Positions 20,151-63,518 of a stretch of 64,000 nt of DNA are shown in pieces. The DNA is from an uncultured Ruminococcus sp. (GTDB lineage: Bacteria; Bacillota; Clostridia; Oscillospirales; CAG-272). The stretch's first letter is position 1. Each line of letters begins with the position of its first letter. The position numbers and the translations under genes are program-made. Location: the NCBI GenBank assembly GCA_964621755.1, contig CAZUPI010000002.1:4442-68441 (forward strand), read 5' to 3'. Below the pieces are notes generated by a model that searched no databases, had not been told where the DNA came from, and was given only the letters and a program-made list of their open reading frames with translations.

Positions 20151-20175
20151 GACTTCCTCCTATCTCGCTGGAATT

Positions 20176-21117: not shown

Positions 21118-21175
21118 AATTCCCCTTCTGCAAGAAAAGCCATTAAAACTGAGCGGACCCAAACGAACCTATACA

Positions 21176-31532: not shown

Positions 31533-31683
31533 AGTAATCACCTTCATACAAATGAATATTTATATTATCTGCATTATTATACCATTGTTACGCAAAAAAG
31601 CGGTTAACAATCCATAAACAATCTTACATTTTAATGGATTATTTACAATTTCATCCTCATTTTTCATGGGGCGTGCAAAGGAT

Positions 31684-32355: not shown

Positions 32356-32730
32356 AATGTTCACTTCCGGGATAAATTTTCTCAATCAAACGGCGCGTCG
32401 TCTTTGAGCACCATCTCCATATATTGCTGCTTTGTTATCAGCACTCTGCGCGGCTTCTGACCTTCCGATCCGCTGACATAGCCGAGGTTTTCCATTGCGT
32501 CTATCAATTTTGCCGCACGTCCGTAGCCGAGGGACAGTTTGCGCTGTATTAGGGATGTCGATATTTTTCCGCTGTCGACCGCAAGCTCTATGGCAGCCTT
32601 CAGCATGGGGTCTTCGTTTTCTCCATCCTCGTCAGACTGCACAGCGCCTCCGGCAGACACAGACGCGCCCTTCTTCCCTCCCCCGCATTTCAGCGCTTCC
32701 TGCTCAATTTGCTTCTGCACTTCCTCGGAA
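32344..32730. repeat. 387-bp direct repeat, copy 2 (native ftsK 3' end / tmk start junction)
   Basis: See copy 1. Here both flanks continue into sequence that is family-typical for FtsK and Tmk. Confidence 0.9.
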
Positions 32731-42461: not shown

Positions 42462-44530
42462 ATGGCAGATATTACCACAAAAAACATCCGTAACGTTGTT
42501 CTGCTCGGACATGGTGGCTCGGGCAAAACTTCCATCGCGGAAGCAGCTTTATATCTTGCAAAGGCGACCGACAGACTCGGTAAGACCACAGCCGGAAATA
42601 CGGTTTGTGATTACGACCCTGAAGAAATAAAACGCGGTTTTTCCCTCACCCTCTCTCTGGCTCCCGTGATGTGGAAGGATTCAAAGATTAATTTCATCGA
42701 CACGCCCGGTTTTTTTGATTTTCAGGGCGAGGTTGACGCAGCTATACGCGTTGCAGACGCAGCTATCATTGCGCTCGACGGCAAGGCTGGCGTTGAAGTC
42801 GGTGCTGAACTGGCTTGGGATAAGGCACAGGAAGCCGGAATTCCCTGTGCGTTCTTTGTAAATAAATGCGACGACTCCGATGCTGACTTCCAGCGCGTCT
42901 TCGACGAGCTCCACGAGAAGTTTGGCTCCGCGGTCTGCCCCACCCTCGTTCCCATTAAAGAGGGCAAGGAAATCAAGTTCCTCGACCTCATCGCAAGAAA
43001 GACCTACGCCTTCGATGCTAACGGCACACGCAAAGCTACAGACTTCTCCGCCGAAGAGGAAGACACTGCCTCCCAATATACCGATACCCTGAACGAAGCG
43101 CTCGCACAGACAAGTGAGGAGCTCCTCGACAAGTACTTCGAAACCGCTGAAATCACCCAAGAAGAAGCAGTAGAAGCACTTCACAGCGGCATCATCGACG
43201 GCACCATCGTTCCGGTATTCAGCGGCTGTGCTGTCAACCTGTGGGGCATCAACTTCCTGCTCGACACCATCTCCGACTCCTTCCCGCGCCCGACCGCAAA
43301 GAAGGTAGAAAAAGTGATCGACGGCGACGGACTAAAAGACATTGCCATCGACCCAGCGGGAGAATGCGCTATCTTCGTATTCAAGACCATCGCCGACCCG
43401 TTCGTGGGTAAGATGTCCTTCTTCAAAGTTATGTCCGGTACGCTCACCAACGACCTTACACTGAAGAACAACACATCCGGCTCGTCCGAAAAGATGGCTC
43501 ATATCTACACCATCCGCGGCAAGAAGCAGACAGAAGTGACCTCCCTCTGCTGCGGTGATATCGGTATGACCGCAAAGCTCGCCGCTACCAACACAAACGA
43601 CACACTCACCGTTTCCTCCGATATAGAATATAAGAAGATTTCCTTCGCACATCCTTACATGACAATGGCGATCACGCCTGCCGCAAAGGGAGACGAAGAC
43701 AAAATCTCCACCGGTATCGCAAGAATCCTCGAAGAAGACCCGACCCTCCTGTACGAGAACAATGCAGAAACAAAGCAGATGACCATCTCCGGTATGGGCG
43801 ACATCCAGCTTGACGTTCTTGTAGCAAGACTGAAGTCCCGCTTCGGCACATCGGTTCTCCTTGAAGCACCGAAGATCGCATACCGCGAAACCATCAAGGG
43901 CACCTCAGACGTTGAAGGTAAACATAAAAAGCAGTCCGGCGGTTCCGGTCAGTACGGTCATGTTAAGATGAGATTCTCACACGGCGAGGCAGAAGGTCTG
44001 ACCTTCACCCAGTCCGTTGTCGGCGGTACCGTTCCGAAGAACTTCTATCCGGCAGTTGAAAAAGGACTTCTCGAAGCAATGCAAAGGGCGTCCTCGCCGG
44101 ATATCCGGTTGTCAACCTCGCAGCAGACCTGTACGATGGCTCCTATCACCCGGTTGACTCGAACGAAATCTCGTTCAAGCTTGCAGCTCGCCTTGCATAT
44201 AAGGAAGGGCTTCCGAAGGCAAAACCGATTCTTCTCGAGCCCATCGGAACCTTAAAAGTAACCGTTCCCGATTCTCTCGTAGGCGACGTCATCGGTGATC
44301 TCAACAAGAGACGCGGTCGTGTCCTCGGCATGAACCCACACGAAACTAAGAGCGGCTACCAGGTAGTAGAGGCAGACGTTCCGAAGGCAGAAATGTCCGA
44401 TTACACCATCGCCCTTCGCGCAATGTCCCAAGGCCGCGGTAAATACGACTTCTCAGTAGACCGCTACGAAGAAGTTCCCTCCTCTGTTGCACAGAAGATC
44501 ATCGCTGAAGCAAAGGTTGAAGAGGACTAA
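42462..44530 (+). pseudogene. Elongation factor G paralogue interrupted by a 1-nt deletion (pseudogene or homopolymer sequencing error)
   Basis: The G1 motif is LLGHGGSGKTSIAEA. Frame 0 reads EKGLLEAMQ, then nonsense to the stop at 44255. From 44084 the -1 frame reads KGVLAGYPVVNLAADLYDGSYHPVDSNEISFKLAARLAYKEGLPKAKPILLEPI and runs to the TAA at 44530, which is canonical EF-G domain IV/V sequence. Adding one base gives 689 aa. Confidence 0.85.
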
Positions 44531-47775: not shown

Positions 47776-49509
47776 ATGACTGACAGAAACATTATCGGAC
47801 AGAAAATCGCATCCCTCAGAAAGGCCAAGGGTATCACTCAGGCGGACCTTGCGAACATGGTCGGGGTCAGCCCGCAAGCTGTATCTCAGTGGGAACGCAG
47901 TGAAACTTTACCCGATATTCTTACGCTTCCCCGTCTCGCAGAGATTTTTGATGAAAGTATATCCGCTCTTCTTGGAATAGAAGATTCTGCCCCCACAACA
48001 AATGCGGAAGCAGAAGCAGTGGAAGAACCCGCGACAGAAGAGAGCACTCCCGCCGCCGATACAGATACAGTGGAAGAACCTGAAATCGTCGAAAGCGAGG
48101 CCGACGACGAAAAAAAATGCGATCCGTACGGTTGCGAAAACGAGGAATCCTCCACAACTACAGACCGTACGGATACCATCGAGGATGCTGTAAATGCTGC
48201 CGCCGACATCGATGCCGCTTTGGATGCTGTTGAAGCAGAACATGACAAGCTCACGGAAGAAGCCGAAGCAGAAGAACACGAGGAGCCTGAAAAACATGAA
48301 GAACCGGACTCTGATGACTTCACCTTCCATACGCCGAATATACACATCCCTGAAATCAACTTTCCCGAAATCCGCCTGCCCGGCGGACGTGTGATTCCGG
48401 CTAAGAAAATCCCGGCAAAAGATATCAACGGAAAGACCATAACTGTAGAAAATGTCGCAGAGAAGATAGCGGATAAAATGAATAACATCGATTTTGACTT
48501 CAACTCTGCAAAATCAACATGCCAGATTGCGGATGTTTCTGGCTTCTCACTCCCTGTGAGCAAATATACCATCGATTTTGACGACTCGAACGAAAGCTAC
48601 GAAGTTGCCATCATCAAGGACGGAAAGATTGTGAAGCGCTTCTCCGCTTCCCCGAACAATTTTGTACAGCTCGTGGTAAACGGAAACATCAATACCCTTA
48701 ATGCGGCTATATCTGTTGAAGTAAACGGTAACGTAGGAGACGCAGCTTCCGGATTTGACATGACAATCAACGGAAACGTCGATGGCGACGCGCACGCGAG
48801 TATGACTCTGACCTGCGGTGATGTAGCCGGCGACGCCTCTTCAAACATGACGCTCAACTGCAACAATGTGGGAGGCGACGCGCACGCAAATATGACGCTG
48901 AACGTAAACGGCAGAGTCGGATACGATGACGACGATAACGACGATGACGACCGCGACATACAGGTCGACGGCATGAACGTCACGATAAACGGCGACTACG
49001 ACGGCGACCTGTCGGCTGCGGCAAATGTAACCGTATGCGGAAGTGTTCTGGGCAACGTCGATGCCGGTGGTTCCGTCAGCGCGGACGGCGATATCGACGG
49101 CGACGTTGATGCAGGCGATTCCGTCACAGCAGGCGGCGATATCAACGGCGACGTCGATGCAGGTAATGATGTAACGGCAGGCGGCGATATCAACGGCGAC
49201 GTCGATACCGGAAAGGACGTTATCGCAGAAGGCGACATCAACGGAGACGTTGACACGGGCGGTTCCGTCACAGCAGGCGGAGACATCGGCGGCGACATTG
49301 ACACGGGCGGTTCCGTCATAGCAGGCGGAAACATCGACGGCGCCGTTGACACATCTGGAAACGTATCGATTGGCGGAGACGCTGCGGGAGACATCAGCGG
49401 AAACAACGTCACGGTAACGGGAAACGTATACGGCGACATTACCGCGGACGGAAAAGTCAAAATTTACGGCGCCGCCCCCAATTGCGAAAATGATGATGAC
49501 GAAGAATGA
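47776..49509 (+). CDS. XRE-family HTH protein fused to an acidic linker and long Gly/Asp-rich beta-solenoid (bactofilin-like) repeats
   Basis: 577 aa with the SD ACGGAGGT. The HTH_3 N-terminus is IGQKIASLRKAKGITQADLANMVGVSPQAVSQWERSE. A D/E-rich linker of about 130 aa follows. The C-terminus carries 16-aa repeats (AGGDINGDVDAGNDVT). No TM segment is present. Confidence 0.85.
   Translation: MTDRNIIGQKIASLRKAKGITQADLANMVGVSPQAVSQWERSETLPDILTLPRLAEIFDESISALLGIEDSAPTTNAEAEAVEEPATEESTPAADTDTVEEPEIVESEADDEKKCDPYGCENEESSTTTDRTDTIEDAVNAAADIDAALDAVEAEHDKLTEEAEAEEHEEPEKHEEPDSDDFTFHTPNIHIPEINFPEIRLPGGRVIPAKKIPAKDINGKTITVENVAEKIADKMNNIDFDFNSAKSTCQIADVSGFSLPVSKYTIDFDDSNESYEVAIIKDGKIVKRFSASPNNFVQLVVNGNINTLNAAISVEVNGNVGDAASGFDMTINGNVDGDAHASMTLTCGDVAGDASSNMTLNCNNVGGDAHANMTLNVNGRVGYDDDDNDDDDRDIQVDGMNVTINGDYDGDLSAAANVTVCGSVLGNVDAGGSVSADGDIDGDVDAGDSVTAGGDINGDVDAGNDVTAGGDINGDVDTGKDVIAEGDINGDVDTGGSVTAGGDIGGDIDTGGSVIAGGNIDGAVDTSGNVSIGGDAAGDISGNNVTVTGNVYGDITADGKVKIYGAAPNCENDDDEE
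49033..49416 (+). repeat. Eight imperfect 48-bp tandem repeats inside the HTH-solenoid gene
   Basis: The units begin at 49033, 49081, 49129, 49177, 49225, 49273, 49321 and 49369. An example unit is GCAGGCGGCGATATCAACGGCGACGTCGATGCAGGTAATGATGTAACG. Confidence 0.85.
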
Positions 49510-49618: not shown

Positions 49619-50314
49619 ATGAAAAAAATTGCACTGACCTGCTCTGTTGGAAACAGCTACACCCTCCATCCGCGTTACATAAATTATATCACAGCCGCGG
49701 CAAAGCAGTTCCAAATGGAAGTCATGCCAATCATCCTGCCTTCTGTAACAGACCCCGCCATACTGGACGAATTTGTAAAATCCTTCGACGGCTTTCTTTT
49801 CACAGGCGGCGTAGATATAAACCCATCCCTATACGGCGAGGAACTGCACGAAAAATGCGGCGAAATTCAGCCTCTCCGCGATACGCATGAACTGATGCTT
49901 CTCGAGCGAATCCGAAAATCGGGTGTTCCGGCGTTCGGAATCTGCCGCGGGATACAGGTGATGGCGGTCGCAGCCGGGGGTAAGCTCTGGCAGGACATCT
50001 ATGCACAAAAACTGGGCGAGGGCGCAGAACACTGCGTCAGGGACGAAAACGACCGCACGCACCATCCGGTAACGTTGTCCGGCTCTCTCGCAGAAGTTGC
50101 CGGTACCACAAGCGTCACAACCAACAGCTACCACCATCAAGCGGTAAAATCGGTCCCCGCAAACATCGAAATCTGTGCTCTCACCCCCGACGGCCTTATC
50201 GAAGCCATCAATGACACATCCCTCCCCTATTACCGTGCCGTTCAATGGCATCCCGAACTTCACTCCGATGAACTATCCTACAAAATTATAAAGCCGTTTT
50301 TTGACGCGCTGTAA
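49619..50314 (+). CDS. Gamma-glutamyl-gamma-aminobutyrate hydrolase-like peptidase C26 / class I glutamine amidotransferase
   Basis: 231 aa. The nucleophile elbow is AFGICRGIQVM and the His motif is QWHPE. Confidence 0.85.
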   Translation: MKKIALTCSVGNSYTLHPRYINYITAAAKQFQMEVMPIILPSVTDPAILDEFVKSFDGFLFTGGVDINPSLYGEELHEKCGEIQPLRDTHELMLLERIRKSGVPAFGICRGIQVMAVAAGGKLWQDIYAQKLGEGAEHCVRDENDRTHHPVTLSGSLAEVAGTTSVTTNSYHHQAVKSVPANIEICALTPDGLIEAINDTSLPYYRAVQWHPELHSDELSYKIIKPFFDAL

Positions 50315-50366: not shown

Positions 50367-51407
50367 TTTTATAACGGAACGCCGACAGAGAGCGTTTCGG
50401 CAGGAGCCGCTGGACGACCGCTCCGGACAGTATGCGGCAAATGGACTTTCACCGCGGGCAAGGCGGAGACATTCCGCGAAGCGCTGCAATTCTTCCGCAT
50501 TATCCACTATGCGCTTTGGGCGGAGGGAAATTATCACAACACGATTGGCAGGTTCGACAAGTACATGATGCTCGGCGGGTCAGACGGAATGGGCGGCGAG
50601 ATTTATAACAAGCTTACCGCGATGTGTCTGCGCGCGTCGGGCGAGTTGAAGCTCATCGACCCCAAAATCAACCTTCGCGTGACGAAAAATACGCCCCTGG
50701 GGGTCTATCAGGAAGGGACAAAACTCACAAAGGTTGGGCTTGGCTTCCCGCAGTACTCGAACGACGATGTTGTGATTCCGGCCCTCGTGAATCTCGGATA
50801 CGACGACGAAATCGCACATTTGCTTCGCAGCGAGTCGCCGAAGGTCGGGAGTGCCGATTCAGATACCGCCGACGAGCAGCTTGTATGGCTGACCGAGGTA
50901 TTCTCCGCTTCCCTGCGCGGGAAAAAGAATGAACGCGGCGGAATCTGGCGCGCCGGAACCGGTTCCGCGATGTTTTATCTGTGGCACGCGGAAGAAATCG
51001 GTGCGTCCCCTGACGGCAGGCGGCGCGGTGAGCCGTTCGCTGCCAACTACTCGGCATCCCTGTTCGCCAAAATCGACGATCCGGTCCATATCGTGAAATC
51101 CTTCACGAAACCGGACCTTGCGAAGGTCATCAACGGCGGTCCTTTGACGCTTGAATTCGACAGCAAAATTTTTGCGAATGAGGAAAGCATGACTAAGGTG
51201 GCGTCTCTTGTAAAATATTTCGTGAGCCGCGGTGGACATCAGCTCCAGCTCAATGCGGTATCCCACGAGGCGCTCCTCGACGCGCAGATTCATCCGGAAA
51301 AGTACGAGCGGCTGATTGTACGCATCTGGGGCTGGAGTGCCTATTTTGTGGAACTGGACAAGGGCTTCCAGGACCATGTGATACGCAGGCAAGAGTATCG
51401 CATGTAA
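50367..51407 (+). pseudogene. Deletion-riddled remnant of a glycyl radical enzyme (PFL-like). The only ATG-initiated ORF is 50565-51407.
   Basis: The C-terminus carries a glycyl-radical motif (LIVRIWGWSAYFVEL) preceded by GASPDGRRRGEPFAANYS. Upstream in the same frame, AETFREALQFFRIIHYALW..GRFDKYM matches the mid-region of GREs but has no start codon. The total is about 1 kb against about 2.4 kb for intact enzymes, and the catalytic Cys loop is absent. Confidence 0.7.
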
Positions 51408-51555: not shown

Positions 51556-53703
51556 ATGAAAAAGTTTTTATCACTTGCGCTTGCCGTTTTGATACCACTC
51601 TCCTCGGCGGCTATACTCGCTTCCTGCGGCAAGGTAAGCGACGAAGACAACGTTATCATTCTTGGCAATACAACGGAACTTTCGGGTGACTTCCGTTTTC
51701 CCGGGTACGGCGCCTCATCATCCAGCGCTGCTGACCAGGACATCAACAAACTCACCGTCGGCTATTCCACCATGGAAACAAACCAGACCGGTGAATACGT
51801 ATGGAATGAAACCGCAGTTAAATCCCATACAGAGGAAGTTGTTGACAATGGGGACGGTACCGAAAACTATAGGATAACCATCGAAATCAACGAAGATCTG
51901 ACCTTCTCCGACGGTACTCCCATTACTGCGGATAACTACCTGGCCTACACGTTAGCGTTCAGTACCATCGTCGCACGCAACGCGGGCAGCACAGGTATGG
52001 CCGGGCAGTCCTTAGTAGGTTTTGCCGACTTCGCCAACTATGCCGGCGAGGGCGTCAAAGTAAATCCAGAAGCAAATGCTGCCAAAGAATTCGCAGGTGT
52101 TCGCAAGCTCGGCGAATACGAATTCTCCCTCGAGATTGACGGCGCTACCGGATTTTATCCCTACTACTACGCATACATTTACTCGGCAGTCACCCCCTAC
52201 GATTTGGGGCTTATCTTCGGCGACGGCGTATCCATCAAGGACGACGGCAAGGGCTGCTACCTCGAAGGCAGCTGGTATGAGCAGCGCGCTGACTCCACCG
52301 CTGACGCTCTCGCTTTCAAGAAATCCGCGCACATGCAGGAAGCGCGTTATGACACAACAAAATATCCCTTCTCCGGTCCTTATACCATCACAGCATGGGA
52401 TGAAGGTACCAAGCAGGCTACTCTGACCAGAAACGACCTGTTCCAGGGCAACTTTGAAGATCAAAAGCCGGCCATTCTCACAGTTGTGTATGTCAAAATC
52501 GTTGCCGAAACACAGATTGACCTCCTAACAAGCGGGGGCGTTGACGTCCTTTCAGGCGTGACCGGCGGCGATATGACAAAGGCGGCGCTTCAGGTTGTCG
52601 GCAGCGGCTTCAAGGAAAACCACTATCAAAAAGCCGGTTACGGCAAAATTCAGTTTGACTGCGACTTCGGTCCCACTCTGTTCGTGGAGGTCCGCCAGGC
52701 AATCGCGACCCTTCTCGACAGACCTACGTTTGCCACCACCTTTACAGGAGGCTACGGAAAAGTTGTAAACGGTCCGTATTCGGAAGACTCCTGGATGTAT
52801 CTCGCCGCAAGGGACACACTGGAAGACGCCATGAACACATACGAATACTCCCTTGCAAACGCCAAAACCATCCTGGAAGAAGGAGGCTGGATATACAATT
52901 CCAAGGGGGAACCATATGTTGAAGGTGCGTCCGGCGTTGACAAAGTGCGTTACAAGAAAATAACAAGAGAAGAGCTTGAGACGCTTACTACAAAAGACTG
53001 TGTAGAAGCCACCATCAACTACCAATCCGTAAACAATACCGACAGCATCGTCTATAAAACCACAGAAATAAATGGTGCATACTATATCCCGCTGGCAATC
53101 AACTGGTTCTCTACCGCCGACAACGCGGTATCCGACCTTCTTTCCACCATGCTCGCAAACGGCACTGATGTGACAGCTGCGGGTATGGTAATCCGTCAGG
53201 CAGTCGGCGACTTCAACTCTCTCCTCGGCGAAATTTATCGTGAACCTTCGTACGGCTACAACGGCGTTATCAAATACAGTATGTATAACCTCGCAACAAG
53301 CTTTACCAGCACGATATATGACTTCTCCTGGAACTGGTCTCTTGACCCGAATTACTTTGCGTACTCGGTAAACAAGCTCTACGACGAGTACGACGCGGCG
53401 TTCCCGTACTATGATGCAGACGGCAGCCACGAAAAACGCAGCTATGCGGAAGCATTGGAAAAGTCCGGCGGCAAGCTTGGTATGGACTACCTGTCCATGG
53501 CAATGGTATACGACGCCGCATCCAACGAAGAATACCTGGAATGGTGGACAGCGTATATCCAGAGATGGAACGAGCTTATCCCCGATATCCCGCTGTACTG
53601 CAACTTCTACTACGACGTATACAACGAAAAGATTCAAGATTACTACACCTCTCCTTATTGGAGAACTGCTGATGCTGTTCTTTACTGCTCTATCAAGGGC
53701 TGA
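51556..53703 (+). CDS. ABC transporter substrate-binding lipoprotein, family 5 (Opp/Dpp type), oversized
   Basis: 715 aa. The signal peptide plus lipobox is LSSAAILASCGK. SBP_bac_5-like segments are present (DLTFSDGTPITADNY). The SD is GGAGG. Confidence 0.85.
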   Translation: MKKFLSLALAVLIPLSSAAILASCGKVSDEDNVIILGNTTELSGDFRFPGYGASSSSAADQDINKLTVGYSTMETNQTGEYVWNETAVKSHTEEVVDNGDGTENYRITIEINEDLTFSDGTPITADNYLAYTLAFSTIVARNAGSTGMAGQSLVGFADFANYAGEGVKVNPEANAAKEFAGVRKLGEYEFSLEIDGATGFYPYYYAYIYSAVTPYDLGLIFGDGVSIKDDGKGCYLEGSWYEQRADSTADALAFKKSAHMQEARYDTTKYPFSGPYTITAWDEGTKQATLTRNDLFQGNFEDQKPAILTVVYVKIVAETQIDLLTSGGVDVLSGVTGGDMTKAALQVVGSGFKENHYQKAGYGKIQFDCDFGPTLFVEVRQAIATLLDRPTFATTFTGGYGKVVNGPYSEDSWMYLAARDTLEDAMNTYEYSLANAKTILEEGGWIYNSKGEPYVEGASGVDKVRYKKITREELETLTTKDCVEATINYQSVNNTDSIVYKTTEINGAYYIPLAINWFSTADNAVSDLLSTMLANGTDVTAAGMVIRQAVGDFNSLLGEIYREPSYGYNGVIKYSMYNLATSFTSTIYDFSWNWSLDPNYFAYSVNKLYDEYDAAFPYYDADGSHEKRSYAEALEKSGGKLGMDYLSMAMVYDAASNEEYLEWWTAYIQRWNELIPDIPLYCNFYYDVYNEKIQDYYTSPYWRTADAVLYCSIKG

Positions 53704-53871: not shown

Positions 53872-54891
53872 ATGGGAAAGTACATACTGAAACGTATCGG
53901 TTATATGCTGCTTGTCCTCGTGATTCTCTCCTTTCTCATGTATCTTATTTACAATATGATACCGTACGATAGAGCGCGTGCCCTCGTCGAAGAACAAAAG
54001 GCGGTCTATAAAAATGACCCGGCAGGATTCGAGCGTGCATACCAGAATTACCGCCACCAGTTAGGCCTCGACCGGAGCGTCGTATTCCGCTACCTCCATT
54101 GGATTGGTCTTGTGCCAATTGACGGAGTCTACGACGGTTTGCTGCAGGGCAACTTCGGCTGGAGCTTCCAATACAACCGCCCCGCAACGGAGGTCCTCGT
54201 CGAACCGATGCGCAATACCATCTTTATTAATATCTTCGCAACCCTATTCGCTCTCGGTATTACCCTCCCTCTCGGCATCTTCTGTGCCGTACACCGCGGC
54301 AGCAAACGGGACTCCGCCGTTCAAATCGGCACCATCGTCGGCTACAGCATCCCGAGCTTTATCATCGCAATTCTGTTCATCTGTCTCTTTGCCGTCATTA
54401 TCCCGATATTCCCCGTCAGCGGTATGAAAACCCCCGGAAGCAGTTACTCTGGAATCAAAAAATTCTTCGACGAGCTTTACTACATGGGACTTCCCCTCGT
54501 CGTGATGACCTTTTCCTCCCTCGGCGGCATGACCCGTTACGTCCGCGCTTCCATGACCGAAGCACTCTCTATGGACTGTATCCGCACCGCACGTGCAAAA
54601 GGACTGCATGAAAAGGTCGTTATTTATTCTCACGCTTGGAGAAACGCCCTCATCCCGATTATCACCCTGATTATCGGATGGTTTATCGGCATCTTCTCCG
54701 GCTCCCTTATGATTGAAAATATTTTTGCTCTCAACGGAATGGGGCGTATCTACATCAACTCGCTCAACTCCAACGACTATGAGGTGGTGCTGATTCTGCA
54801 AATGTTCTACGTCACCCTTGCGCTGCTCGGCAATCTGATAATAGACATTGCATACGGCGTCGCAGATCCGCGTGTCCGTGTGTCAAAGTAA
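53872..54891 (+). CDS. ABC transporter permease (OppB/DppB type)
   Basis: The start at 53872 (MGKYILKRIGYMLLVLVI) is canonical for OppB-like proteins. About 339 aa with 6 TM helices. The track's upstream extension lacks an SD. Confidence 0.9.
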   Translation: MGKYILKRIGYMLLVLVILSFLMYLIYNMIPYDRARALVEEQKAVYKNDPAGFERAYQNYRHQLGLDRSVVFRYLHWIGLVPIDGVYDGLLQGNFGWSFQYNRPATEVLVEPMRNTIFINIFATLFALGITLPLGIFCAVHRGSKRDSAVQIGTIVGYSIPSFIIAILFICLFAVIIPIFPVSGMKTPGSSYSGIKKFFDELYYMGLPLVVMTFSSLGGMTRYVRASMTEALSMDCIRTARAKGLHEKVVIYSHAWRNALIPIITLIIGWFIGIFSGSLMIENIFALNGMGRIYINSLNSNDYEVVLILQMFYVTLALLGNLIIDIAYGVADPRVRVSK

Positions 54892-54909: not shown

Positions 54910-56829
54910 ATGAAAAAAAAGAAAAAATCACTCCGTCATTCATGGCTCGGCAGAATGTTCTGGGGCGCATCCAAAACTCTCGACGACAATCCCGATAAAT
55001 ACGCAAGTCCCGGGAAACTCGCCGTACAACGCTTCTTCCGCCGTCCCGCAGCCTGCGTTGCGCTTGCAATCATCATCGTCATGTTTCTGTTCGTCTTTAT
55101 CGGGCCGCTTATCAACCCAATTGACCTTTCTTATTCGGAAACCCTCCACAAAAATCTCGGTCCCTCCTATGACATGATATCCATTCCGTCCGCTCTTGCG
55201 AGGGACGTCAAGGAAATTTCATCTTATTCCTCCTTTTCTCTCGGGCTTGACAACGCCGGAAACGTCTACACATGGGGCAAAACCTACCTGAAGGATGTCA
55301 AAATCGATATTTCGGACATCCCTGAAGAAGTGCAAAACAACAATATCGTTCACGCGGCTGCCGGTATCGACCACGCTGTGGCCATCTCCGAAGACGGTCA
55401 CCTCTACTGCTGGGGCGCATATGACAACGGTCAGTACGGTATGAACGGCAGCATGATTTCCATAGCAAAGCCGCAGCCGTACGACCTCATCACCGGCACG
55501 ATTGACGTGGCAAATGTAAAACAGCTCATCTGCGGCAACCAGGTCACAGCAATTGTCATGAACGACGGCTCCTCTTATATGTGGGGCAACTACAATATCG
55601 GCGCCACCAACATTACCTCGTTTGACGATATTCCCAACCTCGAAAAGGTCGTGTTCCTCCAATCCCTCATTGTCGGCATCACACAGGACGGTAAATTCGT
55701 TTGCGGCAAGACCTCCGCGTTTGACTCGTATGAAATCATCAATGCAAACGGCGCCGCTGCGCTCACCAATCTCTGGGATTTTCTGGATGACCATAAAGTC
55801 GTCGATATTGCGTCCAATATGACAAACGCCTGTCTCCTGCTTGAGGACGGTTCTCTTCTTATCGTCGGGGCGTCTGGGGACAACTCCCGCGCGATTCCGA
55901 CCATCCCGGACGGCGAAACCGTAACGGCAGTCTACGGCGGCGCAAGGCACTACGCCCTCCTCACCGACGCCGGACGTGTTCTCACATGGGGCGGCAGCGC
56001 GCTCAGCCAGACCGATATTCCCGTCTCTATGCAAAATCCCGGCGCCGCTGACAACCTCTACTGCGTCGGTTTCCAGACTTATGCTGAAAAAGACGGCGAA
56101 ATTGTGGAAAAGTGGGGCTTCAAAGGCTATCTCATGGGAACCGACGAGATCGGACGGGACATATTTGTCCGCGTGATGAACGGCGGTAAAATGACCATGA
56201 CCATCGGTGCGGTCGCGGTTATTCTTTCCTCTGTCATCGGCATCATCATCGGCTGTATCTCGGGCTACTTCGGCGGAAAGGTCGACATTTTTCTCATGCG
56301 TGTGACCGAGATTTTTTCCGCCATTCCGTTTCTGCCGTTCGCACTTGTCCTGTCTGCAATCCTCCGTCAAACGGACGTAAAGGAGGACACGCGAATTTTC
56401 CTCATCATGGTTGTGCTCGGTATTCTGACGTGGACCGGACTGGCGCGGCTCGTCCGCGGTCAAGTACTCGCGGAACGGGAAAAGGAATTTGTTCTGGCAG
56501 CACAGTCGATGGGGGTCCCCGAGAGCCGTATCGCGTTCAAGCACATCCTGCCAAACGTCATTTCGGTCATCATCGTATCCCTTACCCTTGACTTCGCCGG
56601 ATGTATGCTCACCGAAGCGTCCCTGTCTTACCTCGGCTTCGGCGTACAGCTTCCCCGTCCGACATGGGGCAACATGCTCTACGGATGCAACAGCTCAATT
56701 GTCATCAAATCCTACTGGTGGAGATGGGTCTTCCCAGCCCTCTTCCTTTCGGCCAGCACCATTTCCATCAACGTAATCGGTGATACCCTGCGCGATATTT
56801 TTGACCCGAAGTCGGAGGTTGAAAAATAA
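54910..56829 (+). CDS. ABC transporter permease (OppC/DppC type) with a roughly 310-aa RCC1-like beta-propeller inserted in the first external loop
   Basis: 639 aa. TM1 is CVALAIIIVMFLFVFIGPLI. Seven repeats of about 45-50 aa follow (GNVYTWG, GHLYCWGAYDNGQYG, GSSYMWG, GKFVCG, GSLLIVG, GRVLTWG, EIVEKWG). Canonical OppC sequence then resumes: LMGTDEIGRDIFVRVMNGGKMTMTIG plus 5 TM helices. Confidence 0.85.
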   Translation: MKKKKKSLRHSWLGRMFWGASKTLDDNPDKYASPGKLAVQRFFRRPAACVALAIIIVMFLFVFIGPLINPIDLSYSETLHKNLGPSYDMISIPSALARDVKEISSYSSFSLGLDNAGNVYTWGKTYLKDVKIDISDIPEEVQNNNIVHAAAGIDHAVAISEDGHLYCWGAYDNGQYGMNGSMISIAKPQPYDLITGTIDVANVKQLICGNQVTAIVMNDGSSYMWGNYNIGATNITSFDDIPNLEKVVFLQSLIVGITQDGKFVCGKTSAFDSYEIINANGAAALTNLWDFLDDHKVVDIASNMTNACLLLEDGSLLIVGASGDNSRAIPTIPDGETVTAVYGGARHYALLTDAGRVLTWGGSALSQTDIPVSMQNPGAADNLYCVGFQTYAEKDGEIVEKWGFKGYLMGTDEIGRDIFVRVMNGGKMTMTIGAVAVILSSVIGIIIGCISGYFGGKVDIFLMRVTEIFSAIPFLPFALVLSAILRQTDVKEDTRIFLIMVVLGILTWTGLARLVRGQVLAEREKEFVLAAQSMGVPESRIAFKHILPNVISVIIVSLTLDFAGCMLTEASLSYLGFGVQLPRPTWGNMLYGCNSSIVIKSYWWRWVFPALFLSASTISINVIGDTLRDIFDPKSEVEK

Positions 56830-57857
56830 TGGAGAAAAAAAACGATGTTTTGCTTCAGGTAAAGAATCTGCATACCTACTTTAAAACCAGAAACGGCATC
56901 ATCAAGGCGGTAAACGACGTCTCATACGAGCTTTGCGCCGGTAAGACCCTCGGTATCGTAGGTGAGTCCGGTTCCGGCAAAAGCGTATCGGCCATGAGCA
57001 TTCTCCGCCTTCTGGACGCCAACGGCTATATCGCGGAGGGAGAAATCCTCTTTCGCGGACAAAATCTCGTCACCCTTCCCATTCAAGATATGTACAACAT
57101 CCGCGGAAATAAAATTTCGGTTATCTTCCAGGAACCGATGACGAGCTTAAACCCGGTCTTTACGATAAAAAGACAGCTTTCCGAACCGTTCATGATTCAC
57201 CAGAAGATGTCCATGGAGGAGGCCGCAAAAAAGAGTCTTGAAATGCTCGAAGCGGTGCAGATTCCAAACCCGGAAGCGGTTCTCCGGCAATATCCGCACC
57301 AGCTCTCCGGCGGTATGAGACAGCGCGTCATGATAGCGATGGCGCTCGCCTGCAAGCCGGACATTCTCATCGCGGACGAGCCGACCACAGCCCTTGACGT
57401 CACGATTCAGGCACAGATTCTCAAGCTCATGAACGACCTCCAGCGCACCAACGGCACGTCGATTCTCTTCATCACCCATGACCTCGGCGTCATCAATGAA
57501 ATGGCGGACGACGTAGTCGTCATGTACTGTGGGCAGGCGGTCGAACAGGCGCCGGCAAAGGTGATTTTCACCGACTGCAAGTTCAGCCATCCGTATACAG
57601 AGGGGCTGATGTTCTCCATCCCGCGTCTGAACGACACACGCGCGAAGCTCGACCCGATTCCCGGCGTAGTCCCGCACCCCCTCGCCCTGCCGAAGGGATG
57701 CAAATTCTCGCCGCGGTGCAAATACTGCACACAGAAGTGCATAGACGACGAGCCCAAGCTGCTGCCGGCAGGTGAAAATCAGCTTATCCGGTGCCACTAT
57801 CCCGAAAAAGCGGTGAGGAGGAGCGCAGAGCATGAAAAAATTGCTATCCATCAATAA
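56829..57857 (+). CDS. ABC transporter ATP-binding protein (OppD/DppD type)
   Basis: 342 aa. Walker A is GESGSGKSV, the signature is LSGGMRQR and Walker B is ILIADEPTTALD. The C-terminal oligo_HPY region contains Cys residues (CKFSPRCKYC). Confidence 0.92.
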   Translation: MEKKNDVLLQVKNLHTYFKTRNGIIKAVNDVSYELCAGKTLGIVGESGSGKSVSAMSILRLLDANGYIAEGEILFRGQNLVTLPIQDMYNIRGNKISVIFQEPMTSLNPVFTIKRQLSEPFMIHQKMSMEEAAKKSLEMLEAVQIPNPEAVLRQYPHQLSGGMRQRVMIAMALACKPDILIADEPTTALDVTIQAQILKLMNDLQRTNGTSILFITHDLGVINEMADDVVVMYCGQAVEQAPAKVIFTDCKFSHPYTEGLMFSIPRLNDTRAKLDPIPGVVPHPLALPKGCKFSPRCKYCTQKCIDDEPKLLPAGENQLIRCHYPEKAVRRSAEHEKIAIHQ

Positions 57858-59436
57858 CCTGAAAAAATACTTCCCTCTCGCGAAAAAAAGCCTTTTTCAA
57901 AAGGAGCAATACTATGTGCGCGCCAACGACGATATCTCCCTTGACATCTACGAAGGCGAGACGTTCGGATTGGTAGGGGAATCGGGATGCGGCAAATCGA
58001 CGCTTGGACGTGTGATTCTCCAACTCTATCATCAGACCGCCGGGAGTACCATGTACTACGGCCGAACCCTTGCGCAGGCTGCACCGAGTTATGTCATCGA
58101 TACGTTAAAGCACGCGGAGGAGTACGTTGCCGCGTACCATGCTGCGGAAAAGAAAGCGGCGGAAGCTGTGGAAAAGTGCAAACTTCTCGGGGAGAACGCA
58201 ACATTTCTCGACCTGCAAAGCAAAAATCTCGCACTTGCAAAAGCACAGACCGCGTGCAGCAAGACAGCAAAAATTCTCGGCGGCTTTGCAGCGGAAGGAA
58301 CCCGCGAAGGAGCGGACGCTCTGCTTGCCCTATTTGAAATAAACGTAGAAGAAGCGGAAATCCGCCGCAAAATCGAGGATATCGAGCTGGAAACGGAGCT
58401 CATGGAAGGAAAAATCGAGGACCAGAAGAAAGCGGGCAGCTCGATCGACTCACGGAACAGCAAGCTGTCCGGTCTGCGCGAGAAGAAAAAAACATTGGAG
58501 ACGGAAAGAAAAGCGGTCGGTGATAAGCGCGCAGCAGCAGAAGCGAAAGTGGAAACGCTGCGCACAAAGTACCGCGGTCACGCCGAATTTGATAAATACG
58601 AAGCGATGCTTGACGACGGCATTGACCTTTCAAGATTGACCGCTGCCGAAATGCGCGCGATTCGCCGCGACCTGCAAATTATCTTCCAAGACCCGTACTC
58701 CTCGCTGAACCCGCGTATGACCGTCGGTCAGATAATCGCAGAAGGGTTGGTGACACACAAATTTTTCAAACGCGGATCACCGAAAATGAAGGAATACATC
58801 CTCCGCGAAATGGAGAACTGCGGATTACCGGACTACATGTACAGCCGTTATCCGCACCAATTTTCGGGCGGTCAGCGTCAGAGAATCTGCATCGCACGTT
58901 CTCTCGCCGTTAAGCCAAAATTTGTGGTCTGCGACGAGTGCGTATCCGCGCTTGACGTGTCGATTCAGTCGCAGATTATCAACCTGCTTCAGGAGCTGAA
59001 GGAAAAGGAAAAGCTGACGTACCTGTTCATCTCCCACAATCTGTCGGTCGTACGGTACATCTCAGACCGAATCGGCGTCATGTACCTTGGAAATATGGTA
59101 GAAGTAGCGCCGACGGACACGATATTTAAAGACCCGCGTCATCCTTACACCGTAGCGCTCCTGTCCTCCATCCCCACAACGGACCTCGAAGGCTCCAAAA
59201 AGGAACGCATCATCCTTGGCGGAAACATCCCCAGCCCGATAAAGCCGCCGTCCGGATGCAAGTTTCACCCCCGCTGCTACATGGCGTGCGACAAATGCAA
59301 GCGTGTTCCTCCGCCGTACGTAGAAGTTGAGCCGGGTCATTTTGTAGCCTGTCACAATCTCGACCGCAAGGTCGATGAAAATGGAGCCTACCTATTCGAA
59401 CTCCACCAATCCGAAGCGGAGCTTGGAAAGGATTGA
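57832..59436 (+). CDS. ABC transporter ATP-binding protein (OppF/DppF type) with a roughly 190-aa coiled-coil insertion after the Walker A region
   Basis: 534 aa. Walker A is GESGCGKST. An insertion at aa 81-268 is rich in A/E/K heptad-like sequence. Canonical sequence then resumes: LQIIFQDPYSSLNPRMTVGQ, FSGGQRQR, FVVCDECVSALD. Confidence 0.88.
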   Translation: MKKLLSINNLKKYFPLAKKSLFQKEQYYVRANDDISLDIYEGETFGLVGESGCGKSTLGRVILQLYHQTAGSTMYYGRTLAQAAPSYVIDTLKHAEEYVAAYHAAEKKAAEAVEKCKLLGENATFLDLQSKNLALAKAQTACSKTAKILGGFAAEGTREGADALLALFEINVEEAEIRRKIEDIELETELMEGKIEDQKKAGSSIDSRNSKLSGLREKKKTLETERKAVGDKRAAAEAKVETLRTKYRGHAEFDKYEAMLDDGIDLSRLTAAEMRAIRRDLQIIFQDPYSSLNPRMTVGQIIAEGLVTHKFFKRGSPKMKEYILREMENCGLPDYMYSRYPHQFSGGQRQRICIARSLAVKPKFVVCDECVSALDVSIQSQIINLLQELKEKEKLTYLFISHNLSVVRYISDRIGVMYLGNMVEVAPTDTIFKDPRHPYTVALLSSIPTTDLEGSKKERIILGGNIPSPIKPPSGCKFHPRCYMACDKCKRVPPPYVEVEPGHFVACHNLDRKVDENGAYLFELHQSEAELGKD

Positions 59437-59664: not shown

Positions 59665-59708
59665 CGGAATGTAACAGATATTTTTTCCTTTCCATCTAGC
59701 GATAAAGT

Positions 59709-59750
59709 AAAGGGTACAGTTTCTTGCATAGACTGTACCCTTTGTTTTGT
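59709..59750 (+). terminator. Rho-independent terminator of the ABC operon
   Basis: A 12-bp stem (AAAGGGTACAGT/ACTGTACCCTTT) with an 11-nt loop is followed by TGTTTTGTT. Confidence 0.7.
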
Positions 59751-61156: not shown

Positions 61157-62617
61157 ATGAAAAGAGACGACTACAGTCTTGCACTGTTATGCGACTTCTA
61201 CGAGCTGACAATGGGTCGCGGCTATTTTGAAACCGAAATGCGTACTAAAATCGCATATTTTGACGTATTTTTCCGCCGCGTTCCCGATGGAGGCGGATAT
61301 GCTATCGCCGCTGGGCTTGAGCAGATTGTCCATTATATTGAAAACCTCAAATTCTCTGAAGAAGATATTGCGTTCCTGCGTGAGAAGAAAATTTTCTCCG
61401 AGGAATTTCTCGCTTATCTCTCTACATTCCGCTTTTCCGGCGATATCTGGGGTGTCCCCGAAGGAAGCGTTATCTTCCCGGGCGAGCCGATTCTGACGGT
61501 CCGTGCCCCCGTAATTGAAGCACAGCTCATCGAAACCTATGTTCTTCTCGCCCTCAACCACCAGTCTCTCATCGCCACCAAGGCCTCCCGCATGGTTCGC
61601 GCCGCAAAGGGACGTCCCATCTCCGAATTCGGCAGCCGCCGTGCACATGGTGAGGACGCGGCAGTCTACGGTGCGAGAGCCGCCTACATCGGCGGATGCA
61701 CCGGAACGGCCTGCACCCTTTCCGATAAACTCTACGGAGTCCCCGCAGGCGGTACAATGGCGCACTCATGGGTGCAGATGTTCGATAACGAATACGACGC
61801 TTTCACCACCTACTGCCGCCTTTATCCGAACAACCCCACCCTTCTCGTCGACACATACAGCGTATTCGGCTCAGGAATCCCGAACGCCATCCGCGCCGTA
61901 AAGGACATTCTGTGGCCGATGGGGTTGAAGAAATGCGGCATCCGTATTGATTCCGGCGACATCGCCTATCTCACCAAAAAGGCGCGTCGGGTTCTCGACG
62001 AAGCCGGACTTACCGACTGCAAAATCATCGTTTCCAATTCGCTTGACGAATACCTTATCAGCGAGATTCTGGCGCAGGACGCCTGCATTGATGCATTTGG
62101 CGTAGGCGAACGCCTCATCACGGCTAAGAGCGACGCCGTTTTCGGATGCGTATACAAGCTCGCGGCAGTGGAAGATGAAAACGGCGTCATCACCCCGCGA
62201 ATCAAAGTCAGCGAAAACGCCGCGAAAATCACGAACCCGCACTTCAAAAAGCTGTTCCGCATGTACTCGAACGAAACAGGCAAAGCGGAAGCGGACCTTA
62301 TCATGCTTTATAACGAGACTGTCGACCAGACGAAGCCGCTCGAGATTTTTGACCCTGAATACACATGGAAGTGCTGCGTGCTGGAGAACTTCACCGCCCG
62401 GGAAATGTTGGTTTCGGTATTCCAAAACGGCAAGCTCGTCTACAACCTGCCGCCGCTCGATGAAATCCGCGAACACTGCACGCGTGAAATTGCGACCATG
62501 TGGAAAGAGGTCCTCCGTTTTGAAAATCCACACAACTATTACGTCGACCTCTCACAGAATCTGTGGGATTTGAAGCATCAGATGATTTCGAAATACATCA
62601 AGGGAAACCGTGGATAA
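61157..62617 (+). CDS. pncB: Nicotinate phosphoribosyltransferase
   Basis: The start at 61157 (MKRDDYSLALLCDFYELTMG) has a GAAAGGGA SD. The family motifs are FGSRRAHG and GTMAHSWV. Confidence 0.9.
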   Translation: MKRDDYSLALLCDFYELTMGRGYFETEMRTKIAYFDVFFRRVPDGGGYAIAAGLEQIVHYIENLKFSEEDIAFLREKKIFSEEFLAYLSTFRFSGDIWGVPEGSVIFPGEPILTVRAPVIEAQLIETYVLLALNHQSLIATKASRMVRAAKGRPISEFGSRRAHGEDAAVYGARAAYIGGCTGTACTLSDKLYGVPAGGTMAHSWVQMFDNEYDAFTTYCRLYPNNPTLLVDTYSVFGSGIPNAIRAVKDILWPMGLKKCGIRIDSGDIAYLTKKARRVLDEAGLTDCKIIVSNSLDEYLISEILAQDACIDAFGVGERLITAKSDAVFGCVYKLAAVEDENGVITPRIKVSENAAKITNPHFKKLFRMYSNETGKAEADLIMLYNETVDQTKPLEIFDPEYTWKCCVLENFTAREMLVSVFQNGKLVYNLPPLDEIREHCTREIATMWKEVLRFENPHNYYVDLSQNLWDLKHQMISKYIKGNRG

Positions 62618-63518
62618 AAACGAAACGATTCTAAACCGCTGTACAATCTGCCCCCGCATGTGCGGTGCTGACCGCTGCAAAAGCCCCGGATACTGCGGTG
62701 CAACAGACAAAGTTGAAATTGCAAGAGTGATGCTGCATCACTGGGAGGAGCCGTGTATCAGCGGTACGGACAAGACCCGCGGTTCCGGAGCCGTCTTCTT
62801 CACGCATTGTCCCCTTGGGTGTGCGTACTGCCAGAATCGCGACATCAGCCGCCGCACGTCTGTCGGGACGGTTTACACAACTGAAGAGCTCGCGAAAGTT
62901 TTTCTCAAGCTGCAAAAGGACGGCGCGTACAACATCAACCTCGTCAGTCCGACCCAGTACACGCCGCATATTATGGATGCGGTGCGGTCAGCACGTTCGT
63001 GCGGTCTCGCCCTTCCGGTGGTCTGGAATACTGGCGGGTACGAGCTGCCTGAGACGGTATCCGCTCTGCGCGGCATAGTCGATATTTTTTTGACAGACTT
63101 CAAGTATGCCTCACCGGACGCCGCGTCGCTGTACTCGTTTGCAAAGGATTATCCGTTCTATGCTGCGGAATCTCTCGCAAAAATGTACGAAATTACCGGC
63201 AAATATGAGTTTGACGAAAGCGGCATGATGAAGCGCGGGGTCATCATCCGGCATCTGATTCTGCCCGGTTATCGTGCGGATTCAGCGGCAGTACTTGAGA
63301 AAATTGCGGCTGTCGTTCCGGTTTCCGACGTCCGGTTGTCGCTGATGGCGCAGTACACGCCCGAATTTCTCGCAGACGACGAAAAATTCGCCAAAATCCG
63401 CCGTCGAATTACCTCGTTTGAGTACCAGTCCGTTCTCGACAAAGCAGTCCGCTTAGGCTTTGACGGCTACTCACAGGAGCGCACCTCCGCCACCAAAAAA
63501 TTCACGCCGGAATTTTGA
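62610..63518 (+). CDS. Radical SAM protein, PflX-type (putative activating-enzyme-like)
   Basis: 302 aa, GTG start overlapping the pncB stop. An N-terminal Cys cluster (CTICPRMCGADRCKSPGYCG) is followed by the radical SAM motif CPLGCAYC. Confidence 0.8.
   Translation: MDKNETILNRCTICPRMCGADRCKSPGYCGATDKVEIARVMLHHWEEPCISGTDKTRGSGAVFFTHCPLGCAYCQNRDISRRTSVGTVYTTEELAKVFLKLQKDGAYNINLVSPTQYTPHIMDAVRSARSCGLALPVVWNTGGYELPETVSALRGIVDIFLTDFKYASPDAASLYSFAKDYPFYAAESLAKMYEITGKYEFDESGMMKRGVIIRHLILPGYRADSAAVLEKIAAVVPVSDVRLSLMAQYTPEFLADDEKFAKIRRRITSFEYQSVLDKAVRLGFDGYSQERTSATKKFTPEF

Follow-up and report, generated by a model that had tools for sequence, protein, structure and literature searches.

Why would a permease subunit of the oligopeptide-importer type carry a β-propeller in the middle of its chain? 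The question is posed by the gene at 54910–56829 (+) in a 64,000-nucleotide stretch of DNA from an uncultured Ruminococcus sp. This whole stretch is called the window, and all positions are counted in it. The 639-residue product (followed by a stop codon), termed OppC-RCC1 here, is almost certainly an OppC subunit that carries a seven-bladed RCC1-like propeller in its first extracytoplasmic loop, an anatomy derived from Pfam, a PDB sequence search, an AlphaFold2 (AF2) model, and Foldseek comparison of that model. The RCC1-OppC fusion is real and unstudied, and gut Clostridia have conserved it in no fewer than 79 species-level genomes; a literature search found no paper on an RCC1 propeller in an ATP-binding cassette (ABC) permease, an OppC protein, or an oligopeptide permease.

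Domain organization of OppC-RCC1

OppC-RCC1 is encoded by a single uninterrupted open reading frame (ORF), with the first transmembrane helix (TM1) upstream of the insert and TM2–TM6 downstream. At the amino terminus, the Pfam OppC_N domain (residues 33–85, 55006–55164; 41.4 bits versus a cut-off of 23.9, E = 1.4e-10) includes TM1 at residues 48–68 (55051–55113). This helix corresponds to a hydropathy peak at residues 50–68 and a model helix at residues 46–68, and the next TM segment by hydropathy is found at residues 432–450. TM1 is followed by a 27-residue linker (residues 69–95, 55114–55194), delimited by the AF2 model and the ortholog alignment, in which Pro85 and Pro93 are conserved in at least 95% of 79 orthologs. 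The propeller is defined here as residues 96–405 (310 residues, 55195–56124). Three stretches of the propeller match Pfam RCC1_2 (69.1 bits versus a cut-off of 22, E = 2.2e-19) and one repeat matches RCC1 (26.8 bits versus 21.7). The Pfam whole-domain model WD40_RLD matched residues 96–321 (E = 2.1e-29) with 103.4 bits, under its cut-off of 150, and an NCBIfam scan with the insert alone returned no family. The PDB sequence search matched residues 96–409 to HERC2, UVR8, RPGR, RCC1, and BLIP-II (E = 8e-23 to 3e-8), and the phmmer alignment with BLIP-II (E = 2.6e-8) covers residues 307–408 only.

Strand groups assigned by DSSP in the model divide the propeller into seven blades. Blade 1 consists of residues 96–142 (55195–55335) and is followed by blade 2 (residues 143–199, 55336–55506), which on Pfam, DSSP, and conservation contains the best RCC1 signature, GIDHAVAISEDGHLYCWGAYDNGQYG. 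Blade 3 (residues 200–240, 55507–55629) leads to blade 4 (residues 241–293, 55630–55788), which has an extra hairpin and is the most variable blade across orthologs (majority fraction 0.39). Blades 5 (residues 294–334, 55789–55911) and 6 (residues 335–378, 55912–56043) precede blade 7 (residues 379–405, 56044–56124), whose final strand ends in WGF and joins the conserved OppC segment directly. The RCC1 signature G-x-x-H...G-x-V-x-x-W-G-x-N-x-x-G-Q-L-G is clearest in blades 2, 3, and 6; blades 4, 5, and 7 diverge from it.

The OppC sequence resumes immediately after the propeller. The OppC/DppC extracytoplasmic motif GTDxxGRD (residues 410–417, 56137–56160) stands ahead of TM2; Gly410, Thr411, and Gly415 are invariant, and Asp412, Arg416, and Asp417 are at least 90% conserved. 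The TM2–TM6 transmembrane domain (TMD, 56161–56826) matches Pfam BPD_transp_1 at residues 444–634 (112.3 bits versus a cut-off of 26.4, E = 2.9e-32) and contains the EAA-type coupling segment AAQSMGVPESRIAFKHILPN (residues 530–549), which aligns with the matching segment of E. coli OppC in the PDB sequence search. The same search (E = 4e-49) pairs residues 38–78 with residues 29–67 of E. coli OppC (8z21_B) and residues 406–635 with residues 81–301. Because the two halves of this alignment stop at OppC residue 67 and restart at 81, the insert of about 327 residues replaces about 13 residues of E. coli OppC. On its Pfam domains, predicted fold, and operon partners, OppC-RCC1 can be assigned to the OppC/DppC permeases, though only at the family level. 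None of the NCBIfam equivalogs (Opp4C, OppC, DppC, NikC, and others) reached its cut-off, the best being Opp4C with 304.7 bits versus 350, and therefore no specific substrate class is assignable to OppC-RCC1.

Predicted structure and membrane orientation

The AF2 model of OppC-RCC1 was built from 39 homologs and has a mean predicted local distance difference test score (pLDDT) of 84 and a predicted template modeling score (pTM) of 0.76. Within the insert the pLDDT is about 90, with block means mostly 86–96 and three blocks at 73–82. DSSP analysis of the model gives the TM1 helix (residues 46–68), the linker, seven groups of three to four strands, and then the OppC helices. We read the seven strand groups of the model as seven blades that close into a ring. 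With the membrane part of the predicted model as query, Foldseek retrieved 8z21_B (E = 7e-16, template modeling score TMt 0.72, root mean square deviation (rmsd) 2.2 over 227 columns) and, more broadly, the E. coli and M. tuberculosis OppC/DppC structures (TMt 0.63–0.73, rmsd 2.2–3.9). The insert retrieved UVR8 (E = 3.5e-14), the RCC1-like domains (RLDs) of RPGR and HERC1/2, and BLIP-II (TMt 0.73–0.77, 19–20% identity), and the predicted propeller superposes over its full length on the seven-bladed UVR8 and BLIP-II.

Charge distribution points to an outward orientation of the loop. The amino-terminal 47 residues contain 13 Lys/Arg versus 3 Asp/Glu, and the insert contains 20 Lys/Arg versus 43 Asp/Glu. 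The bias is maintained in the orthologs: the amino terminus is net positive and the insert net negative, each in 77 of 79. Cryogenic electron microscopy (cryo-EM) structures of DppBCDF and DppABCDF show DppC with six TM helices and a periplasmic TM1–TM2 region (PMC12136057). The propeller is placed outside the cytoplasmic membrane because of the positive-inside charge bias and the homology to the cryo-EM Dpp structures, and it is predicted to face outward. The strand of blade 7 (…EKWGF) continues into YLMGTDEIGRD, so the propeller has no carboxy-terminal tether. This direct junction and the 27-residue amino-terminal linker would therefore keep the propeller close to the external surface of the membrane, on the side of OppC. 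There it would lie beside the site at which the substrate-binding protein (SBP) covers OppB and OppC in solved structures of Opp/Dpp complexes.

These data agree with a first-pass annotation of the window, made by a model from the DNA letters and ORF translations, that had called 55192–56124 (residues 95–405, the propeller) a seven-blade RCC1/BLIP-II-type propeller in an OppC-type permease. The eight strings it quoted are all present in the 639-residue product, at residues 110–123, 156–177, 212–226, 254–266, 306–320, 347–361, 393–403, and 408–422 (LMGTDEIGRDIFVRV), and its repeat periodicity fits a terminal-Gly spacing of 40–57 residues with a mean of about 47. The call of a propeller is borne out by Pfam, where OppC_N, RCC1_2, RCC1, and BPD_transp_1 all score above their cut-offs, by the PDB sequence search, and by structure prediction and Foldseek, which recover the fold. 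The described return to an OppC segment with five further TM helices is what the model and the six-TM DppC/OppC structures contain (PMC12136057). An outward-facing first loop that is normally short, also claimed, is consistent with the charge bias, the homology, and the roughly 13 residues found there in E. coli OppC.

The propeller permease is conserved in gut Clostridia

A full-length protein search of NCBI, ENA, JGI, and Logan sequences returned more than 120 clusters (90% identity) that are 55–85% identical to OppC-RCC1 and have the identical Pfam architecture. Some of these clusters hold up to about 1,000 member sequences, and the proteins are named in the databases only as 'ABC transporter permease subunit'. 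The permease-plus-RCC1 combination, whose spread the first-pass annotation had left as a question, is widespread in gut Clostridia. When the insert alone was the query, the close matches (38–70% identity) were all OppC-type proteins or fragments, followed by free RCC1 proteins at 21–31% identity.

A search of species-representative genomes identified 599 relatives, and the best 80 were analyzed as loci (L001–L080). These 80 are 47–82% identical over most of the protein, usually residues 1–639. Nearly all are labeled as metagenome-assembled genomes (MAGs) of gut Clostridia (Oscillospiraceae, Lachnospiraceae, Christensenellales, Acetatifactor, Faecousia, Ruminococcus, Subdoligranulum); two carry other labels, Bacteroidaceae and Bacilli. 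Their source labels include human and mouse gut catalogues and rabbit and ruminant samples. The closest genome is an 'Eubacteriales' MAG (L001) with an OppC that is 82% identical and with thiI and NAPRT downstream, as in the window. The genes that accompany OppC-RCC1 recur across these loci (79 have OppD, 78 OppB, 76 OppF, and 75 the SBP), and the cassette is complete wherever the contig allows. All-against-all clustering of the flanking ORFs of the 80 loci yielded no conserved neighbor, the best being a PepF-like M3 peptidase in 7.

The insert is 325–351 residues long in the 79 species-level orthologs. Relative to the window protein, median identity is 41% in the insert and 74% in the TMD, and the propeller positions that are conserved at 95% or more are nearly all RCC1 scaffold residues (Gly, Trp, His, and Gln at the signature positions). 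Divergent members, with 38% insert identity, keep the cassette, a large SBP (754 residues), and a long OppF (543 residues). The conservation of the architecture, the insert length, and the cassette argues that the propeller is functional, and the presence and size of the domain are under strong purifying retention. An artificial fusion of RCC1 and OppC genes, by assembly chimera or gene-call error, has practically no chance of being correct. Nothing speaks for it beyond the metagenome-type source of the contig. Against it stand the uninterrupted ORF with TM1 before and TM2–TM6 after the insert, the uniform base composition across the region, and the recurrence of the junctions and the insert length in 79 species-level assemblies and more than 120 protein clusters. 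The assembly chimera that the first-pass annotation had named as a danger is ruled out by the same junctions and insert length in these 79 independent genomes.

A sister clade carries a different insert at the same site

The wider family was surveyed by a HMMER search over 1.84 billion 50%-identity representatives, and the best 150 matches were classified with hidden Markov models of TM1, the propeller, and the TMD. RCC1-insert permeases account for 33 full-length and 13 fragmentary proteins among the best 150, 44 permeases have another large insert (150–480 residues) in loop 1, and 10 have a short loop. The rest comprises free RCC1-repeat proteins (1,400–7,200 residues) and TMD fragments that lack TM1. 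Some RCC1-bearing OppC proteins are longer than the window protein: P0169, P0174, P0180, and P0183 (773–1142 residues) have loop-1 inserts of 450–835 residues, and in P0174 the RCC1 matches are near both ends of the loop, several hundred residues apart, with a long charged, helical-looking stretch among the residues between them.

A neighbor-joining tree of the TMDs (midpoint-rooted, without support values) places every RCC1 permease in one clade of 30 together with one short sequence, perhaps a truncated gene call, and all of the permeases with other inserts in a separate clade. The insert of this sister clade occupies the same OppC_N/BPD_transp_1 insertion site, and TMD identity is 38–45%. 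The 44 inserts of the sister-clade permeases (P0218, P0225, P0226, P0230, P0234, P0259, and others; 659–2539 in L083) have no Pfam domain, and 39 of them are mutually homologous. These 39 are unrelated to the propeller; remote homology between the two was considered and rejected on an hhalign probability of 0.3%. A metagenome scan with P0218 for the sister-clade cassette found just a 3.9-kb contig and an ordinary Opp locus. The simplest reading of these sequences is that the propeller was acquired once, anciently, and has been stably kept, and that the other domain was acquired in parallel at that site in the sister lineage.

OppC-RCC1 belongs to a five-gene importer cassette

Judged by the families of its products, the cassette is a five-gene ABC importer of the Opp/Dpp type (type I). 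The SBP gene (51556–53703, +) encodes a 715-residue lipoprotein of family 5/cluster C (Pfam SBP_bac_5, E = 2e-28) with a signal peptide and the lipobox L-A-S-C (Cys24) in the amino-terminal sequence MKKFLSLALAVLIPLSSAAILASCGK. The AF2 model of the SBP has a pLDDT of 81. Its best Foldseek match is B. subtilis AppA (1xoc; E = 1.9e-24, TMt 0.77), and the other top matches are Thermus OppA, NikA, and L. lactis OppA, with about 700 columns aligned. Because the model superposes over its whole length on AppA/OppA/NikA, the SBP is predicted to be an enlarged cluster-C protein without a discrete extra domain. SBP length in propeller-bearing cassettes is bimodal (566–670 and 680–772 residues). An extra SBP domain that would serve as a handle for the propeller was considered and rejected on the single enlarged cluster-C fold (AF2, Foldseek) and the bimodal size. 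An SBP homolog of 1132 residues (P0314, 67% identity; 9001–12399 in L085) carries a fused F5/8 type C domain. No Opp permease gene lies next to it, and its neighbors are genes for a rhamnosidase, GH109, a dockerin protein, a GDSL esterase, and a polysaccharide deacetylase. From this context, proteins of the SBP family might recognize glycan-related ligands.

The OppB-type permease (53875–54891, +; 338 residues from the ATG at 53875) has a canonical amino-terminal TM1–TM2 region and matches Pfam BPD_transp_1 (E = 3e-33) and BPD_transp_1_N; NCBIfam Opp4B scored 220 bits, under its cut-off. The two ATPases are an OppD type of 342 residues (56829–57857, +) and an OppF type of 534 residues (57832–59436, +; PDB matches 8z21_D and 8j5q_D), both with Pfam ABC_tran and oligo_HPY. 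OppD contains the Walker A motif GESGSGKS, the signature LSGGMRQR, a Walker B ending in ADEP, and a carboxy-terminal Cys cluster; it scored 379 bits against NCBIfam OppD, under the cut-off. Both proteins keep Walker A, the signature, the Walker B Glu, and the carboxy-terminal Cys-rich oligo_HPY region, and the matching region of E. coli Dpp binds [4Fe-4S] clusters (PMC12136057). After OppB the genes are spaced by 18, −1, and −26 nucleotides, with a GGAGG-type ribosome-binding site at each start. Downstream of OppF, a terminator-like hairpin with a 20-bp stem followed by a T run (59703–59749, +), called by consensus match only, is possibly the end of the operon; it was the sole notable item in a promoter/terminator scan whose counts equaled the shuffled background. 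The substrate is probably an oligopeptide, which is favored because of the similarity to AppA/OppA and the occasional peptidase neighbors; an oligosaccharide or a glycopeptide is a less favored candidate.

OppF carries an insertion of its own. An alignment break marks 184 residues (79–262; 58066–58617, +) between the Walker A region and the Q-loop: residues 6–78 and 263–451 align with contiguous residues 351–423 and 422–607 of M. tuberculosis OppD and are likewise contiguous against E. coli OppF. The insertion is rich in Ala, Glu, Lys, and Leu with a single Pro and probably forms a helical or coiled-coil arm. OppF is 509–624 residues long in 69 of 70 complete cassettes, and one propeller-bearing cassette has an OppF of normal length (354 residues). 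In E. coli, DppC specifically pairs with DppF (PMC12136057). By analogy with this OppC-type/F-type pairing, the propeller and the OppF insertion would lie on the same half-transporter. Distance matrices over the 80 loci show that SBP, OppB, and OppC intercorrelate at 0.84–0.93, that their correlation with OppD/OppF is 0.1–0.4, and that OppD and OppF correlate at 0.81–0.86. This pattern suggests that the ATPase pair has a different history (exchange or gene conversion) or simply a compressed variance.

The propeller as a candidate docking platform

Our tentative proposal, with the chances somewhat against it, is that the propeller is an SBP-docking or retention platform like the MalF P2 loop. 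Put as one statement, the anatomy and the docking mechanism together come not far short of an even chance. The propeller would offer a surface for protein-protein contact at the translocator, where it would capture, orient, or retain the membrane-anchored SBP, and it may additionally seal the cavity between SBP and TMD on the side of OppC; the scoop region of OppB is normal. The transport cycle itself would follow the canonical Opp scheme, with SBP docking and ATP closing OppD/OppF, after which the substrate would be released into the OppB/OppC cavity and hydrolysis would reset the system.

Docking is favored by the way the SBP caps Dpp, by the MalF P2 precedent, by the protein-binding habit of RCC1-like folds, and by a fast-evolving surface on a fixed scaffold. 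The SBP of E. coli DppABCDF sits as a cap over both DppB and DppC. These two permeases differ in their TM1–TM2 periplasmic regions, which are specialized for contact with the SBP; in DppB this region forms a scoop motif and reaches into the SBP cleft (PMC12136057). In MalF, the P2 loop is a large folded periplasmic insert of the TMD that binds MalE with a Kd of 7–22 μM and remains attached throughout the cycle (PMC6906923). Solved RCC1-like propellers bind proteins according to their PDB entry titles: BLIP-II with β-lactamase, RPGR with PDE6D and RPGRIP1, and UVR8 with COP1 and RUP2. The fast divergence of the propeller (41% versus 74% identity), with only the scaffold invariant, is expected of a co-evolving protein interface and not of a fixed small-ligand pocket. 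The presence of the SBP gene alongside the propeller permease wherever the contig allows also supports docking.

Several observations weigh against this proposal. Mirror-tree correlations with SBP-core distances are 0.90 for the propeller, 0.85 for the TMD, and 0.93 for OppB, so the propeller does not stand apart; because all three correlate equally with the SBP (0.84–0.93), the mirror-tree is uninformative. The AF2 model and Foldseek give the SBP no discrete extra domain, and the SBP occurs in two length classes while the propeller length is constant. The first-pass annotation had linked the propeller to an oversized SBP, and this link is weakened by the same facts: the SBP has a normal cluster-C fold with distributed insertions and no separate domain, and its length is bimodal against a constant propeller. 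No conserved surface patch outside the scaffold was found from the 79 ortholog sequences alone. Finally, the 67%-identical SBP homolog lies outside any Opp cassette in a glycan-degrading neighborhood, which argues that the SBP family does not strictly need the propeller and that the substrate may not be a plain peptide.

Alternative roles were considered as well. We consider it unlikely that the propeller is an independent ligand or envelope module, such as a lectin, a second receptor for the substrate, or a domain that binds peptidoglycan or teichoic acid; that such a module positions the transporter in the wall, or pre-concentrates a bulky substrate (glycopeptide, oligosaccharide) by the pore, is unlikely to the same degree. 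An extracellular propeller, as the charge bias indicates, is compatible with a module of this kind. Its nearest non-permease relatives are RCC1-repeat proteins, some named 'alpha-tubulin suppressor-like RCC1 family protein' and one with a TIG domain (PF01833); other relatives are giant multi-repeat proteins of 2,000–7,000 residues, presumably surface proteins. The SBP homolog with an F5/8 type C domain among glycan-related genes points in the same direction, as does the binding of chitin oligosaccharides by Opp-family SBP folds, with 7ebi among the fold matches of the SBP. However, a polar or aromatic pocket beyond the RCC1 scaffold is not evident in the 79 orthologs, OppC-RCC1 has no carbohydrate- or wall-binding Pfam signature, and the RCC1-like fold matches bind proteins. 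The commonest neighbors of the cassette are peptidases and not carbohydrate-active enzymes (a PepF-like M3 enzyme at 7 of the 80 loci, an M1 enzyme in L081, and a C26 enzyme in the window). We would give little chance to a propeller that recruits another extracellular protein, for example a peptidase that couples degradation to uptake, or that inhibits an enzyme in the manner of BLIP-II. The similarity to BLIP-II (sequence E = 2.6e-8, TMt 0.73–0.77) and to other protein-binding RCC1-like domains fits such a role, the propeller surface evolves fast, and the longer members of 773–1142 residues add extracytoplasmic modules in loop 1, but no partner gene is conserved by the cassette in the 80 loci, whose flanks are unrelated, and the BLIP-II likeness at 19–20% identity is that of a shared fold.

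Least probable among the functional readings, with very little chance in our estimate, is a sensor or regulatory gate that works with the OppF insertion to couple an extracellular cue to the ATPase, or a signaling device in place of a plain importer. In 69 of 70 complete cassettes both insertions occur together on the half formed by OppC and OppF, DppC pairs with DppF in E. coli (PMC12136057), and MalF P2 is reported to communicate substrate availability to MalK (title of a reference in PMC6906923). On the other side, both ATPases and the TMD keep all of their catalytic motifs intact and at high conservation, as functioning importers do, and the exceptional cassette with a 354-residue OppF retains the propeller. 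OppF-insert distances track the ATPases and not the propeller (r = 0.30), and no regulator gene is conserved nearby in the 80 loci. A bolder account, quite unlikely as it stands, treats the propeller as a second, permease-borne receptor that with the OppF insertion would define a new subclass of Opp importers in gut Clostridia, with the sister clade built on a like principle. The TMD-borne domain would then select or pre-process bulky substrates (glycopeptides, host or diet peptides, wall fragments) or gate transport through coupling to the ATPase.

Comparison with known transporters and propellers

Canonical OppC/DppC proteins (E. coli OppBCDF 8z21 and DppABCDF 8z1v–8z1z; M. tuberculosis OppABCD 8j5q and DppABCD 8wd9) share with OppC-RCC1 the OppC_N TM1, GTDxxGRD, the six-TM BPD_transp_1 organization, and the EAA segment, and E. 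coli OppC is 40% identical over TM2–TM6 (TMt 0.72). The operon partners are the same: a family-5 SBP, OppB, and OppD/OppF with an oligo_HPY Cys-rich carboxy terminus. The window system differs in the TM1–TM2 loop, which has about 340 residues predicted to fold as a propeller in place of about 13, and in the 184-residue insertion of OppF. MalF of E. coli MalFGK2-E is like OppC-RCC1 in having a large folded extracytoplasmic insert in the TMD of a type I importer. MalF P2 belongs to a different family, the MalF family, and lies in the TM3–TM4 loop as an Ig-like domain of about 185 residues (PMC6906923), whereas the OppC propeller of about 310 residues lies between TM1 and TM2. The P2 loop is possibly the best functional analog of the propeller and is not a homolog.

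RCC1, UVR8, the RPGR and HERC1/2 RLDs, and BLIP-II resemble the propeller in their seven blades and signature (Foldseek E = 1e-14 to 1e-12). These proteins differ in being soluble cytosolic or nuclear eukaryotic proteins or, for BLIP-II, secreted; none is within a membrane transporter, and identity is 17–21%. The known functions in this group (Ran guanine nucleotide exchange, UV-B sensing, and β-lactamase inhibition) are not implied for the propeller. On its sequence it is not demonstrably a BLIP-II-type inhibitor, the likeness being at the level of the shared fold. Gram-positive type I importers of the GlnPQ and OpuA type have the SBP fused covalently to the TMD. What those importers tether is the SBP itself; the window system encodes its SBP as a distinct lipoprotein and tethers a propeller, which has no SBP fold.

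Other features of the window

The rest of the window is an ordinary Firmicute chromosome with a dcw cluster, gatAB, ftsK, znuA, and other genes. The dcw cluster (7069–21162, −) is complete, with mraW, a DivIC-like gene, a penicillin-binding protein with PASTA domains, two Mur ligases, mraY, ftsW, murG, ftsQ, and ftsZ, and this ordinary cluster shows the window to be chromosomal. Directly upstream of the transporter, the 280-residue ORF at 50565–51407 (+) has an internal PFL-like piece (profile positions 340–423) and a carboxy-terminal glycine-radical domain and looks like a remnant or truncated glycyl-radical enzyme. A peptidase C26/class-I glutamine amidotransferase-like gene of the γ-glutamyl hydrolase type (49619–50314, +) is located 1.2 kb upstream of the SBP gene and is not conserved beside the cassette in the other genomes (80 loci). 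A radical-SAM gene is found at 62610–63518.

Three further ORFs encode multidomain proteins. The 577-residue product of 47776–49509 (+) joins a Cro/C1-type helix-turn-helix and an acidic low-complexity linker to a bactofilin domain with many G-D-x-x-G/D-V repeats, an unusual DNA-binding/polymer-forming fusion. At 30675–31547 (−), a 290-residue protein has a DJ-1/PfpI domain fused to an FtsK gamma (KOPS-recognizing winged-helix) domain; it is encoded about 0.8 kb downstream of full-length FtsK (32382–35489, −), with a thymidylate kinase-like gene between them. The ORF at 42462–44255 (+) encodes a 597-residue EF-G/RF3-like translational GTPase paralog with GTP_EFTU and EF-G domains 2, III, and IV and no EFG_C match.

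Implications

Opp/Dpp systems serve as models for type I ABC transporters, and every solved complex that was matched (E. coli, M. tuberculosis) has short permease loops. A permease-borne extracytoplasmic propeller is unusual among type I importers, yet it is a domain-insertion variant of a well-understood machine. The propeller is compact and its termini are adjacent, and it should therefore be simple to express, delete, or swap. If docking is true, evolution would have arrived independently at a second answer to the problem met by MalF P2 in maltose uptake, and the propeller would help to explain how lipoprotein SBPs are retained at the translocator in Gram-positive cells. If the propeller binds something else, it would represent a new way for abundant gut anaerobes to link the capture of a substrate with its transport. 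Bacterial RCC1-like repeats, most of which have no known function, would in this permease gain a defined extracytoplasmic job.

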